64,000 nucleotides of DNA from assembly GCA_963735035.1 (NCBI GenBank), contig CAVTJJ010000004.1, forward strand, positions 288,001 through 352,000. Direction: 5' to 3'. Shown one piece after another: positions 4,273 to 21,638 of the stretch. The position numbers were made by a program, and so were the translations under genes. Source of the stretch: an uncultured candidate division Zixibacteria bacterium (GTDB taxonomy: Bacteria > Zixibacteria > MSB-5A5 > GN15 > FEB-12). Position 1 is the stretch's first letter, and every line of letters begins with the position of its first letter. A model generated the notes under the pieces. That model was given only the letters and a program-made list of their open reading frames with translations, did not search any database and was not told the origin of the DNA.

Positions 4273-4536
4273 TCAGCCGGCTTTTCTCTGTACGAACGCC
4301 GCCAGATTGTCGACCGAATCGAGGTTGGCCGGGATCATTTCCTCGTCTTCGACCGTAATGCCGTAAGTCTGTTCCAGATGTGAGACGAGCTCCAGGACTC
4401 CGGTCGAATCTATGATTCCCTTTTCCATGAAAGAATCGCCGTTCTCGAACCCTTCCGAGTCGTCGCCGAACAGGAAAGTTTCCAGTATGAAAGTCCTGAG
4501 TTCCTCGCGGATCGAATTGAGTTTTGCTACTGTCAT
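4273..4536 (-). CDS. Acyl carrier protein
   Basis: 87 aa, acidic, GIIDSTGVLELV phosphopantetheine-Ser motif. Confidence 0.9.
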   Translation of the reverse strand: MTVAKLNSIREELRTFILETFLFGDDSEGFENGDSFMEKGIIDSTGVLELVSHLEQTYGITVEDEEMIPANLDSVDNLAAFVQRKAG

Positions 4537-4568
4537 GATCTTGTCCGTGTCTTTTCCTGGGTTAGGTT

Positions 4569-5543
4569 CTACCGTATCGGGGTCATCTCGAGCGGCGTCG
4601 CCCGGAGATATTCGGTGGCGACAATCTTCCGCTTGATGTTGGCGTAACCCCGCTCCACCTGTTGCTCATTGAGCCCCAGCACCGCGGCCGCCTCGGCGGG
4701 AGAAACGTTGTTCTCCATAGCGTACCAGAGCATGTCCATGGTATAGAAATCGAGGCCGAAGAAGAACTCTTCCTGCGTAACCTCGAAACTGTACGTATCC
4801 GTAGTCGGCGTCCGCTTGATGATTTCCTGCGGCACGCCTATGGCTTCGGCAATTTGATACACCTGGATCTTGAACAAATTGGCGATCGGTTTCATGTCCG
4901 CGCCACCGTCGCCGTACTTCACGAAGAACCCCTGCATATGTTCGTCTTTGTTGCCGGTACCGATTACCGCCCAGTTCCGTTTCTCGCCATGATAATAGAG
5001 CGTCGTCATCCGCAGCCGCTGCTTCAGATTCGACGACGCCACCACCTGGAGGTACGATTCGAGCGGCATCCGTTTCGTCAAGACTTCACCCTTGAGGTTC
5101 TCGACCGTCAGGTTGAAAAAGTTGAAAGTGTCTTTTTCGAGGATATTGGTGGGGGTGACGATCTTGTTCTTCCAGCCATCGGTGTATTCGGGGAAGACCA
5201 TGCGGATAGCCTCGTCGCGACGACGATAGCAACCCAGACCGGTTAACCCGCCGCTGATGTCTTCCTTGAGGGTTTCGAAACCGAATTTCTTGGCCAGTAC
5301 GCGAGCCAGTCGCTCGCTTTCGGATGACGAGTCCGTTTCCGGCATCATGATTCCGACCACCCGTTTGGGCCCTAGCGCCCGGGCGCACAGGGCGGCGCAG
5401 ACCGAGGAATCAATCCCGCCGGAAATGCCTATTACGGCACCTGATTTTTTGAGGACCCGACCGACCTGGTGCCGGATTTCGGATTCCATCTGTTCCGCCG
5501 TCTTGGCAGCGTCGATTTTGAGACTGTCCTTAGTAAACTTCAA
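4569..5543 (-). CDS. nadE: NH3-dependent NAD+ synthetase-like protein (ACP/AsnB-associated type)
   Basis: ISGGIDSS PP-loop, NLKQRLRM, GFFVKYGDG, PTTDT; TTG start. Confidence 0.8.
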   Translation of the reverse strand: MKFTKDSLKIDAAKTAEQMESEIRHQVGRVLKKSGAVIGISGGIDSSVCAALCARALGPKRVVGIMMPETDSSSESERLARVLAKKFGFETLKEDISGGLTGLGCYRRRDEAIRMVFPEYTDGWKNKIVTPTNILEKDTFNFFNLTVENLKGEVLTKRMPLESYLQVVASSNLKQRLRMTTLYYHGEKRNWAVIGTGNKDEHMQGFFVKYGDGGADMKPIANLFKIQVYQIAEAIGVPQEIIKRTPTTDTYSFEVTQEEFFFGLDFYTMDMLWYAMENNVSPAEAAAVLGLNEQQVERGYANIKRKIVATEYLRATPLEMTPIR

Positions 5544-18996: not shown

Positions 18997-19329
18997 TTAG
19001 TCCTTAAACAGATCGTCGAAATTCTTCCGGCGCGATTCCTTGTTGTCTGTCCGCTGCCTGATGCCGCCCGCGCCCTTGACCACCTCGCGCACCTGGAAGA
19101 AATCACAGAAATTGGCTTTGTTCTTGTTCAGCACCGGATGATCGACATTCTCGCGACACTGGTGCCGTCGCGTGGGATCAAAATGCCGACAGCCGCGGCA
19201 GGTGCGAAGATCAGCGAGGCAGTTCTGGCACTGATCGTGCCGCGTGACACTGCCCTTGGAGCCGGACGGTCGCCCGCAACTCCAGCAGAGCAGACCTTCT
19301 TCTTTCAGTTCGCCGCCGTGTAAAGCCAT
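18997..19329 (-). CDS. Cys-rich, probably zinc-binding hypothetical protein
   Basis: CWSC, CQNC, CRGC, C, NFCDFF; C-terminal FDDLFK. Confidence 0.7.
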   Translation of the reverse strand: MALHGGELKEEGLLCWSCGRPSGSKGSVTRHDQCQNCLADLRTCRGCRHFDPTRRHQCRENVDHPVLNKNKANFCDFFQVREVVKGAGGIRQRTDNKESRRKNFDDLFKD

Positions 19330-19427
19330 ACATAATTATACGCTGAATCACGGTGTTCGTCAAGCTTGATGGGATGGTATCTTTGCGACAGAAGCGATCG
19401 TAACGCCTTGAGGAATCCCACCCGTTG

Positions 19428-19609
19428 GGGAGTGTTGAAAAAGTCTCTTCCCCGTCATCGCGAGTCTCGACCGCGCTTCGCGGGCGAGATGTGGCGATCT
19501 CAAATGACACTGACACAACGAGCTTGAGATTGCCACGCTAAGCTGACCCGCCTCACGGCGTGCCATCTCCGCTCGCAATGACGATTAGACAGCCTTTTTC
19601 AAGACTCCC
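19428..19609 (-). mobile_element. MITE-like element (reverse copy)
   Basis: gggagtgttgaaaaag ... ctttttcaagactccc around a reverse RPE-like core. Confidence 0.8.
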
Positions 19610-19694
19610 GCTGGGTGGGGTACCGAAGAATTGGCGCAGACTAGGATTCTGCCCTACGAATCTGAGATAGTAGACACTTCTCACCAATTATCAC

Positions 19695-19723
19695 TTGACA
19701 CGACGCCCGCGTATAGTTATGCT
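19695..19723 (+). promoter_or_regulatory. Near-consensus sigma70 promoter
   Basis: TTGACA(19695)-N17-TATGCT(19718). Confidence 0.75.
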
Positions 19724-19729
19724 TACGGT

Positions 19730-20030
19730 GCAGTTCACGCTGCACCGCCATACGATCACACATTCGACCTTGCACCTTGGGACTTTCAACTACACGCTCA
19801 CTAATCACGTGGGTCAGTTGTGTGGACCCTCACACCACCTGGACGGACTGGAACGCGTCAGGGGTCCGATTGCAGGCCCCGGTCGGACGGCCGGGAAACT
19901 TGACGTGTTAGAGTTCGGCTGGGGGAAATTCCTCACATTTGTTCGCCACGCTGCGACAGACACGGACGGTAGTATTACGTCCGTTGTGAGGGGGGCGCCT
20001 GCCCCGGTCTTTGCGCCGGGGCAGGTGTTC
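19730..20030 (+). ncRNA. Candidate structured non-coding RNA (~300 nt), family unknown
   Basis: Promoter upstream, several nested helices, closing GC hairpin at 19998-20025, no credible ORF. Confidence 0.5.
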
Positions 20031-20064
20031 TGTTGATGTGCAGGTGAATTGTGCGGAAGATCAT

Positions 20065-20370
20065 GCTTTCGTAGGGCAGAACCCGAGTCCGCCAAAGGCG
20101 GGCGAGCGGTTCTGCTACACTTCGACCCTTCGACATGCTCAGGGCTCAGTGTGACTTTGAAATGGCAGAATCACCCCACCGAGGCGGCGGGGGATTCTGC
20201 CCTACGTTAACTTAACAACATAAACCCGGCAGACGAGGACCCCCGATCAAGTCTAGGGCAGGCATCTGCCGGGCACAGTTATTGTCGATGCGGGCGTCAG
20301 GTCACACGCCCCGCTGAAGCGGGTCGCAGGACCCCCGATTAAGTCGGGGGCAAGCTCTGACGCAACCTGG
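20065..20370. repeat. Cluster of REP-like palindromes
   Basis: gtagggcagaacccgag..ggcgagcggttctgc (also near 62684), ccttcgaca..ctcaggg, gcgtcaggtcacac..ctgacgcaac (also near 61869). Confidence 0.7.
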
Positions 20371-20390
20371 CGGCACTGGGGCAACTCATC

Positions 20391-21638
20391 CTACGCGCCG
20401 TACTTGTCGATGATCTCCTGCTTCGACTTGCCAAGGATGTCGTACTTCTTGCCGACCTTACGGAAAGCGTCGAGCGCTTTGTCGAGATGATGAATCTCGT
20501 GACCGGCGGAGATCTGCGTGCGGATACGCGCCTGGCCTTGCGGCACCACCGGGAAGAAGAAGCCGATCGCGTAGATGCCCTCGGCGAACAAATCGCGCGA
20601 GATATCCTGTGAGAGCTTGGCGTTGAACAACATCACCGGCACGATCGGGGTATCGCCCTCTTTCAGAACGAAGCCGGCCTCCTCGAGACCTTTCCGCCAA
20701 TAGGCGGTGTTCTTCTCGAGTTTGTCGCGTCGCTCGGTACTCTTGGACAGAATATCCAGCACCCGGATAACACCGGAAACCACTACCGGCGCAATAGTAT
20801 TCGAAAACAGGTATGGCCGCGCTCTCTGGCGGCACATCTCGACCAGTTCGCGGCGTCCTGACACGCAGCCGCCCGACGCTCCACCAAGCGCCTTGCCGAA
20901 AGTAGTCGTGATGACATCGATCTTGCCCACCACGCCGTATTTCTCGTGCGTGCCGCGGCCGGTCTTGCCGATGAATCCACTGGAGTGGGAATCGTCTACA
21001 AACAGCATGGCGTCGTACTTATCACACAGTTCCACCATCTTGTCCAACTGCGCCGTGTCGCCGTCCATCGAGAACACGCCGTCAGTGATAACCATGCGGA
21101 CTCTGCGTCCGGCGTGAAGCTGCAATTTCTCTTCGAGATGCTCCATGTTGGCATGTTTGAACGTATCCTGCTCGGCGCTGCACAACCGCATGCCGTCGAT
21201 AATCGACGCATGCACGAGCCGGTCGGCGATCATCATGTCGTCTTTGGTGAGAACGGCCTCGAAGATACCGGCGTTGGCGTCCATGCATGACGGGAACAGA
21301 ATTGTGTCTTCGGTGCCGAGGAAAGCGGTTACTTTGCGTTCCAACTCACGATGTATATCCTGCGTGCCGCAGATAAAGCGTACCGATGACATGCCGTAGC
21401 CACGGCTGTCGAGGCCTTCGTGCGCTGCTTTGAGTACCTCGGGATGGCTGGACATGCCGAGATAGTTGTTGGCGCACATGTTGATTACTTTCTTCGGCGC
21501 GGCGCCGGTCGGAAATTCGACTTCGATATCCGCCGCCTGCGACGAATGTATGTACCGTTCCTGTTTGAACAGGCCGGCGTCCTGAATCCCCTTAAGTTGA
21601 TCTTGATAAATTGTGCGAACCTTATCGCTGTAGCCCAT
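20391..21638 (-). CDS. kbl: 2-amino-3-ketobutyrate CoA ligase (glycine C-acetyltransferase)
   Basis: CANNYLG, MSSVRFICGTQ, DGVFSMDG, TFGKALGG PLP lysine, RQRARPYLFSN, ARIRTQ. Confidence 0.92.
   Translation of the reverse strand: MGYSDKVRTIYQDQLKGIQDAGLFKQERYIHSSQAADIEVEFPTGAAPKKVINMCANNYLGMSSHPEVLKAAHEGLDSRGYGMSSVRFICGTQDIHRELERKVTAFLGTEDTILFPSCMDANAGIFEAVLTKDDMMIADRLVHASIIDGMRLCSAEQDTFKHANMEHLEEKLQLHAGRRVRMVITDGVFSMDGDTAQLDKMVELCDKYDAMLFVDDSHSSGFIGKTGRGTHEKYGVVGKIDVITTTFGKALGGASGGCVSGRRELVEMCRQRARPYLFSNTIAPVVVSGVIRVLDILSKSTERRDKLEKNTAYWRKGLEEAGFVLKEGDTPIVPVMLFNAKLSQDISRDLFAEGIYAIGFFFPVVPQGQARIRTQISAGHEIHHLDKALDAFRKVGKKYDILGKSKQEIIDKYGA

Follow-up and report, generated by a model that had tools for sequence, protein, structure and literature searches.

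A 64 000-nucleotide (nt) stretch of DNA from an uncultured candidate division Zixibacteria bacterium (GenBank assembly GCA_963735035.1, contig CAVTJJ010000004.1, positions 288,001 to 352,000 of the forward strand), hereafter the window, contains a unit between two protein genes that had been flagged, in a sequence-only reading, as a stand-alone structured RNA of about 300 nt. The host genome has a size of 3.6 Mb in six contigs, a G+C content of 55% and a completeness of 96.9%. The candidate lies within a 1060-bp gap, and the genes on both sides are on the minus strand (Table 1): p110, which is divergent from it, and a class I/II aminotransferase gene, which we take to be kbl and call by that name, and which converges on it. 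The analysis reported here, which compares the unit with related genomes, indicates that this unit is most likely to be a genuine gene for a non-coding RNA (ncRNA) of ~305 nt, transcribed on its own, with orthologues in other genera of the same Zixibacteria family.

Table 1. Features of the candidate RNA gene and its surroundings, with positions in the window (REP, repetitive extragenic palindromic sequence; TSS, transcription start site)
Feature	Position	Strand	Description
p110	18997-19329	-	Divergent neighbour of the RNA; Cys-rich protein of 110 amino acids (aa), no assigned family
p110 promoter	19363-19335	-	TTGACG-N17-TATAAT
Repeat with inverted ends	19415-19612		Each position has ~20-50 BLAST matches in the rest of the genome; outside the RNA
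REP-like GGATTCTGCCCTACG	19636-19660		Left flank, outside the RNA; 80 genome copies at no more than 2 mismatches
Promoter	19686-19723	+	A/T-rich stretch, TTGACA (19695-19700), 17-nt spacer, TATGCT (19718-19723)
Inferred 5' end	19730-19743	+	TSS ~19730, placed 7 nt past the -10 hexamer; GCAGUU in hairpin GCAGU/GCUGC
C-rich run CACCGCCA	19743-19750	+	RNA nt 14-21; candidate seed
Variable middle	19751-19961	+	Predicted branched domain: 19827-34/19985-92, long arm 19838-19923 including 19852-62/19899-909
Hairpin P4	19962-19984	+	ACGGACG, 9-nt loop, CGUCCGU; just 5' of the G-run
GUGA, then GGGGGG	19986-19995	+	G-run (19990-19995) invariant
Terminal hairpin and U-rich tail UUCUGUUG	19997-20035	+	Arms 19997-20008/20015-20026, loop 20009-20014; likely intrinsic terminator
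REP-like and other repeats	20068-20370		Right flank, outside the RNA
Class I/II aminotransferase (called kbl)	20391-21638	-	Convergent neighbour; PF00155, E = 1.1e-55

The promoter and the predicted fold

The sequence-only reading had described the promoter as a near-perfect sigma70 site, and this description holds: TTGACA-N17-TATGCT is read at 19695-19723 and scores 10/12 in a promoter scan, with a perfect -35 hexamer. The region 19000-20600 contains three promoter-like sites, compared with 0.3 +/- 0.6 in shuffled sequences. Across the genome, 520 sites score at least 10/12, and 284 of them fall in the 16.7% of the genome outside crude gene calls (~6-fold enrichment). Because of this enrichment, and because 180 of the 284 non-coding sites point into a gene start within 300 nt, the promoter consensus is informative in this organism. 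Among the 104 promoter-like sites with no gene behind them, that of the RNA has the strongest downstream terminator-like hairpin. It turns out that five of ten other promoter-plus-terminator units that were checked, all without a called gene, are tRNA genes, and the combination of the two signals thus picks out real RNA genes. The terminal hairpin and U-rich tail are likely to be an intrinsic terminator and to mark the 3' end of the RNA.

Four further promoter-plus-terminator units of this genome without a called gene (G000; C4:559139, C4:869206(-), C4:252438(-) and C4:500481) had no Rfam hit at E 0.01 and could be small genes or additional small RNAs (sRNAs).

All pairings listed in the sequence-only reading are present in the sequence, and RNAfold recovers the helices listed for 19757-20025. 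There are eight Watson-Crick pairs between 19827-34 (CCCTCACA) and 19985-92 (TGTGAGGG), 11 pairs, including two G-U pairs, in 19852-62/19899-909, seven in 19962-68/19978-84, and ten in 19998-20007/20016-25, extendable to 12-16, and only the helix 19757-69/19812-24 proved to be imperfect (11 of 13 positions paired). The stretch 19930-37 (TCCTCACA), which had been named as a possible competitor for the strand 19985-92, is by its sequence a true one.

On the plus strand, the whole unit (19730-20035) has a folding z-score of -3.48, with none of 100 shuffles as good, versus -1.03 on the minus strand. The corresponding values are -4.05 and -0.91 for the core (19826-19993) and -6.4 and -4.66 for the closing hairpin (19993-20035), and the 5' third (19730-19826) gives no folding signal on either strand (-0.5 and +0.36). 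The folding energy of the core is matched by 14 of 1500 random 168-nt windows of the genome and by ten of 443 GC-matched windows, and a strand difference as large as that of the core occurs in 32 of 1500 random windows of the same length. Taken alone, the predicted structure makes the candidate suggestive, not compelling; it is unusual, not extreme.

Five orthologues in one Zixibacteria family

Several searches left the RNA an apparent orphan. A BLAST-type DNA search of 40 relatives and 284 other Zixibacteria returned only chance matches of 18-36 nt (E at least 0.011), and a covariance model built from the core of the single sequence (R1) found nothing in 107 family genomes, nor, with filters switched off, at the loci of both congeners; the core is the non-conserved part of the RNA. 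Likewise, the 113-aa open reading frame (ORF) that spans the unit, used as a probe, found no relatives in genome contigs or viral contigs. In metagenome contigs the same probe pointed to two loci, the first being a false match inside a 1024-aa ORF and the second a 20-residue match.

A search for homologues with nhmmer, a check that the sequence-only reading had proposed, was run on 162 loci fetched round p110 and kbl homologues, and from it the family grew to five. Locus L105 (L218; genome G044) matched over the whole unit (E = 4e-4) and lies directly upstream of p110, in divergent orientation. A two-sequence profile found L111 (L002 and L219; genome G050) at E = 1.7e-7, and a sequence-only model, R2, applied to the 107 family genomes, found L221 (genome G110) at E = 7.6e-4 (4e-6 within the locus). 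A model of the 3' module, R3, found L348 (genome G015) at E = 1.3e-4, and 305 nt upstream of that match the 5' module was matched independently, at E = 0.0097 and in the correct orientation. Since L105 and L218 are the same sequence, as are L111 and L219, there are five distinct members including that of the window, and these represent five genera of one Zixibacteria family. The history of these searches carries a methodological caution: the RNA looked like an orphan to BLAST, to the covariance model built from one sequence and to the scans based on ORFs, and a profile search limited to syntenic loci alone revealed the family.

Wider searches added no member. Exact patterns of the conserved 3' end, or of the promoter plus 5' end, recovered only two known members from 185 579 species genomes, and no match came from the upstream regions of another 78 p110 loci, whether at a cut-off as loose as E 20 or with modules built from all five sequences. 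The weak R2/R3 matches L222-L224 and L227-L229, which by our reading have no promoter-like site upstream and resemble coding DNA, were set aside, as were L233 and L349-L373, which likewise have no 5' module; among the latter, L352 in congener G002 looks by eye like an ordinary gene terminator. Five matches in two other families (L376-L380; f14 and f20) resemble the 3' module at 26-30 bits and have neither a recognizable 5' module nor a p110, icd (isocitrate-dehydrogenase-like) or kbl context.

Two side observations came from these searches. The pattern CTTGACAC-N16-TAnnnT-N5-TGCnGTT occurs at 107 places in the species genomes (L237-L343), many of them in Clostridia and Oscillospiraceae, a skew that may simply mirror the composition of the database. 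A ~130-nt stretch that looks non-coding (L378:1380-1600 and L379:1380-1600) is, by our reading, near-identical in two genomes of another Zixibacteria family and ends in AAGGAGGGAU followed by the hairpin CCCCGCCCC/GGGGCGGGG; it may be a remote homologue of the 3' module, or else a conserved RNA that has nothing to do with it.

The five orthologues have a common anatomy. All contain TTGACA-N17-TAnnnT with an A/T-rich stretch before it, and in the five-sequence alignment the columns CTTGACA, TAT..T, G..GTT (at the 5' end) and the G-run are invariant. The inferred transcripts, of 305, 306, 309, 253 and 261 nt, all begin with G(C/U)AGUU, followed by a C-rich run within nt 13-28; the 5' hairpin GCAGU/GCUGC is weak or shifted in the orthologues other than that of the window. 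The middle region is not alignable. It is followed by a 3' module in which the P4 hairpin, GUGA-like bases, the invariant GGGGGG, two bases and a 12-bp hairpin succeed one another. In each of the five the sense strand is the better folder, with z-scores of -3.5, -4.8, -2.2, -2.9 and -3.9, versus -1.0, -1.8, -1.1, +0.45 and -2.7 for the antisense strands. As is expected of an sRNA gene, the conserved promoter and hairpin appear to provide all five with a promoter and a terminator of their own, outside any mRNA.

The arms of the terminal hairpin are near-invariant, and its loop sequence, GGUCUU, is kept in three of the five. All 59 of 59 cells of the alignment are paired, and the 12 pairs comprise three with compensatory changes, four with one-sided compatible changes and five that are invariant; 12 of 500 shuffles reached this pattern, and slid controls were 39-56% paired. 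Of the helices listed in the sequence-only reading, the closing hairpin alone has covariation support; the internal ones belong to the sequence of this genome and lie in the non-alignable middle. At the P4 position each of the five sequences allows a hairpin, the stems being unrelated in sequence, and such a hairpin is the lowest-energy structure of the stretch folded in four, another fold winning in L221. In the three orthologues examined the G-run is predicted to pair with three different partners, and in two of them not with the C-run.

On the divergent side of the RNA, p110 is found at a distance of no more than 2 kb in all five loci, being adjacent to the RNA in the window, L218 and L219 and separated from it by icd in L374 and L375. 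On the other side kbl converges on the RNA in three loci, and otherwise the downstream gene encodes a HAD (haloacid dehalogenase) hydrolase or is hprK. No co-oriented gene follows in four of the five loci; in L218 the HAD hydrolase gene lies ~250 nt downstream on the same strand.

In congener G002, the slot between p110 and kbl is occupied by REPs, a short-chain dehydrogenase/reductase (SDR) gene and a gene for a REP-associated tyrosine transposase (RAYT; Y1_Tnp). A 29-nt stretch there resembles the 5' end of the RNA (22 identical positions, model E 0.24), with no promoter and no hairpin, and the RNA gene seems to have been destroyed in this genome. The idea that the RNA is instead a remnant of the SDR or RAYT genes was rejected, as it has no similarity to them. 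Searching with the G002 transposase by tblastn, we found seven related places in the genome of the window.

Neighbouring genes, repeats and known RNA families

The p110 protein has eight invariant cysteines in CxxC-type pairs. It is present in 38 of the 41 Zixibacteria genomes searched and, according to record titles, also in Treponema and Acidobacteriota. Searches of Pfam and NCBIfam gave nothing significant, Atlas entries are hypothetical proteins only, and the best matches among PDB sequences (E 0.18-0.95) are not significant, the top ones being a kinase-like protein and, at E 0.72 and 0.95, Zn-ribbon RNA-binding proteins. An AlphaFold model, with a predicted local distance difference test (pLDDT) score of 52, was unusable. 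The p110 promoter ends 5 nt from the ATG in this genome, and the p110 mRNA would be leaderless if this ATG is the true start.

Within the gap, only 19330-19410 and 19630-20068 are unique by BLAST against the genome itself, and the candidate lies inside the second of these. The latter has no second genome copy, unlike its flanks, and in this it differs from REPs and from REP doublets forming hairpins (REPINs); the sequence-only reading was therefore right to call the candidate unique sequence unlike the flanking REPs. The inverted REPs at 19636-60 and 20068-92 were rejected as a frame round the candidate, being the adjoining ends of two neighbouring REP units.

The repeat at 19415-19612, which lies between the RNA promoter and the p110 promoter in this genome, is ~200 bp long with 19-nt inverted ends and could be an element resembling miniature inverted-repeat transposable elements; similar pieces occur in contigs of the soil metagenome run X1. 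A further stretch of the GGATTCTGCCCTACG REP family is found at 20068-20206 of the window, and L094:3480-3605 and 4422-4901 were noted in connection with this family and the RAYT gene. A third repeat family, AGGACCCCCGAT.AAGTC..GGGCA, is located at 20236-20263 and 20328-20355 and has ~40 BLAST matches in the genome.

Rfam 15 gave no match at the gathering score in the whole window, and none at the RNA in the four orthologous loci, so that the novelty of the RNA stands. A permissive search of 19500-20300 matched the terminator hairpin to CC0196 at E 9.1 on the wrong strand, and RsmY matches at E 0.29-0.52 in the orthologous-locus search lie outside the RNA; both were discarded. RNase P RNA, transfer-messenger RNA (tmRNA) and signal recognition particle (SRP) RNA were found elsewhere in the genome above their cut-offs and none matches the window, in agreement with the earlier remark that signatures of these RNAs were not seen. 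Among the papers found by literature searches for small RNA, 6S RNA and RNA motifs in Zixibacteria, none deals with the subject, judged by title and the opening of the abstract. Judged from sequence, the RNA is a new lineage-restricted family of structured sRNAs, of a known kind (bacterial small or medium-sized ncRNA) and matching no described RNA family.

Possible role and its alternatives

The earlier claim of a stand-alone RNA gene of ~300 nt is supported by the syntenic recurrence of the unit in four other genera, the lack of a conserved ORF and the better folding of the sense strand in all five. We regard it as very probable that the RNA gene is under selection, because the promoter, the 5' end, the G-run and the covarying hairpin are kept, the middle and the reading frame are free, and p110 is only 58-66% identical (tblastn) between the orthologous loci. 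The broader statement, that the ncRNA gene encodes a trans-acting regulator, is one that we somewhat favour; the trans-acting mechanism, taken alone, is put forward tentatively, as the likeliest of the readings considered.

According to this proposal, a sigma70-type promoter with a perfect -35 hexamer, a 17-nt spacer and an A/T-rich upstream stretch would drive a ~305-nt RNA, in which a conserved 5' end (GCAGUU and the C-rich run) is followed by a fast-evolving middle, predicted to be structured and of constant overall length. The RNA would act in trans as a regulator. Its best seed candidate may be the C-rich 5' segment, because conserved ends with a free middle are typical of base-pairing sRNAs, and the putative targets would be G-rich sequences resembling ribosome-binding sites. 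The 12-bp hairpin and U-rich tail would terminate transcription and protect the 3' end, and a module for protein binding or stability may most plausibly be sought in the G-run and the hairpin with its loop sequence. In common with intrinsic terminators, the RNA has a G+C-rich hairpin in its last 40 nt, with U-rich sequence behind it in four of the five orthologues. However, a generic terminator needs neither a G6 run ahead of it nor a conserved sequence, and here the G6 run is invariant and the arms, together with part of the loop, keep their sequence across genera.

The closest known systems are sRNAs that act in trans by base pairing through a C-rich seed and have a terminator hairpin, such as RsaE/RoxS of Firmicutes. 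The Zixibacteria RNA shares with sRNAs of this type a promoter of its own and the lack of an ORF; as in them, a C-rich segment close to the 5' end and the 3' hairpin are conserved, the middle varies and the distribution is restricted to one lineage. In contrast to them, it is two to three times longer, has no sequence or Rfam similarity to them and has a C-run that is not consistently unpaired. The genomic context also differs, as a gene for Hfq was not found in the Zixibacteria genome searched.

Several observations weigh against a conserved base-pairing regulator. The predicted accessibility of the C-run ranges from 0.15 to 0.96, the run being open in two orthologues and paired in three. The terminal hairpin is the only helix with covariation support, and L105 has no U-tail after it by our reading of the sequence. 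P4 is more stable than shuffles in just two of the five, and a closing helix between the C-run and the G-run, proposed by RNAalifold from three sequences, was discarded after proving no better than shuffled sequence in any of the five. No match to PF17209 (Hfq) was obtained in the 96.9%-complete genome, so that the RNA does not qualify as an Hfq-dependent sRNA. The family is small and patchy, with members in 5 of 108 family genomes, although the searches are weak for sequence this diverged. Neither of the two other genomes of its genus has the RNA, which appears to be dispensable, since its slot has been replaced in a congener. Finally, coverage of the region in the DNA run X1 is confined to 19453-19602, 20145-20240 and 20398-20447, that is, to flanking repeats and the start of kbl.

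It is unlikely that the locus acts in cis instead, its promoter interfering or competing with the divergent icd or p110 promoter, or its hairpin serving as a conditional terminator that gates antisense transcription into the kbl operon. The RNA does lie beside p110 or icd in five of five loci and faces kbl in three, the divergent promoters are read ~120-140 nt apart in L105 and L111, and the 3' arm of the terminator in the window might instead pair with 19874-81, giving an alternative fold. However, the downstream gene varies between loci (kbl, HAD hydrolase or hprK), the alternative pairing sits in the non-conserved middle, and promoter interference needs no conserved transcribed 5' end or hairpin loop.

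That the RNA sequesters a protein in the manner of a sponge, be it CsrA or a different RNA-binding protein, for which the neighbouring p110 would be a candidate, seems rather improbable to us. Sponges of the CsrB/RsmY/RsmZ type are stand-alone genes of a similar size range, and a CsrA gene is present in this genome. The many GGA motifs of a CsrB/Rsm-type sponge are not found, the observed/expected numbers in the five RNAs being 9/5.0, 5/5.2, 7/6.2, 4/3.7 and 3/4.8, with one marginally high (P 0.05), and none of the RNAs has an Rfam match to such sponges. As for p110, its linkage to the RNA in all five loci and the conservation of the G-run and hairpin, with its loop in three of the five, beyond the needs of a terminator would suit a protein-binding RNA. 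Yet p110 is far more widespread than the RNA, and its matches to RNA-binding proteins in the PDB are not significant.

Rather improbable as well is that the RNA is the Zixibacteria counterpart of an abundant housekeeping ribonucleoprotein RNA, either 6S/Ms1-like or an RNA partner of p110. If it were, GUGA-G6-hairpin would be a protein-binding site, and other Zixibacteria would contain many copies diverged beyond detection; this would fit the 3'-module-like matches in two further families.

It is quite improbable that the unit has no function of its own and is a relic in decay, or a neutral spacer, in which the resemblance to a promoter and a terminator is left over or arose by chance. The -35 and -10 hexamers and their spacing have been retained, as have the 5' end, the G-run and, with compensatory changes, the two arms of the hairpin, while p110 has diverged so far. 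The locus is nevertheless a hot spot of repeats and rearrangement, the RNA has been lost in a congener, and ~1-2% of random genome windows fold as well as the core.

The sequence-only reading had also left room for a divergent 6S RNA, an idea that neither predicted shape nor distribution supports. We consider it decidedly improbable that the RNA binds RNA polymerase, whether as a divergent RNA of the 6S type or in the manner of Ms1. Like 6S RNA, the unit is stand-alone, promoter-driven and structured, with a strong promoter behind an A/T-rich stretch, and Ms1 RNA is, at ~300 nt, of similar length. No RF00013 (6S) match was obtained in the genome of the window, in which RNase P RNA, tmRNA and SRP RNA were all found, or in 40 relatives; however, the control was positive in only 5 of 14 known genomes, which makes this absence weak evidence. 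In contrast to 6S RNA, the present RNA has no model match and is ~100 nt longer. The minimum-energy and centroid folds predicted for three orthologues are branched structures in which the 5' and the 3' hairpin stand apart from each other, not a rod formed by a single long interrupted helix with a central bubble. Nor does its distribution have the breadth of 6S RNA, as it occurs in so few family genomes and is replaced in the syntenic slot of a congener.

In the window an open frame of 113 codons runs through the unit, but a small-protein gene is highly improbable, since this frame begins at the -35 hexamer, is not conserved, has the codon usage of spurious ORFs and has no family or relatives. 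Its codon score is 0.039, versus means of 0.045 for spurious antisense ORFs and 0.19 for real genes, and it yielded no Pfam match and no six-frame relative in 160 genomes of the order. The longest sense ORFs of the five orthologues (88, 71, 52, 36 and 48 aa) include no conserved reading frame, and the translations show the long frames of the window and L105 crossing the conserved TTGACAC in different registers. The inferred transcript (19730-20035) is without any ATG, which is true of 1.5% of random windows. With both neighbours on the minus strand and this frame apparently spurious, the earlier statement that no credible plus-strand gene lies behind the promoter is upheld. The inferred transcript also contains 14 CAC triplets, where 4.6 are expected; neither this excess nor the missing ATG is clearly common to the remaining orthologues.

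Zixibacteria are known from metagenomes only. An RNA gene that can be delimited from promoter to terminator and that has five orthologues would be the first concrete handle on riboregulation in this group, and its promoter, of the sigma70 type and preceded by an A/T-rich stretch, may also serve as a clean example of such sites in Zixibacteria. The RNA sequence is ready to be searched for in metatranscriptomes.

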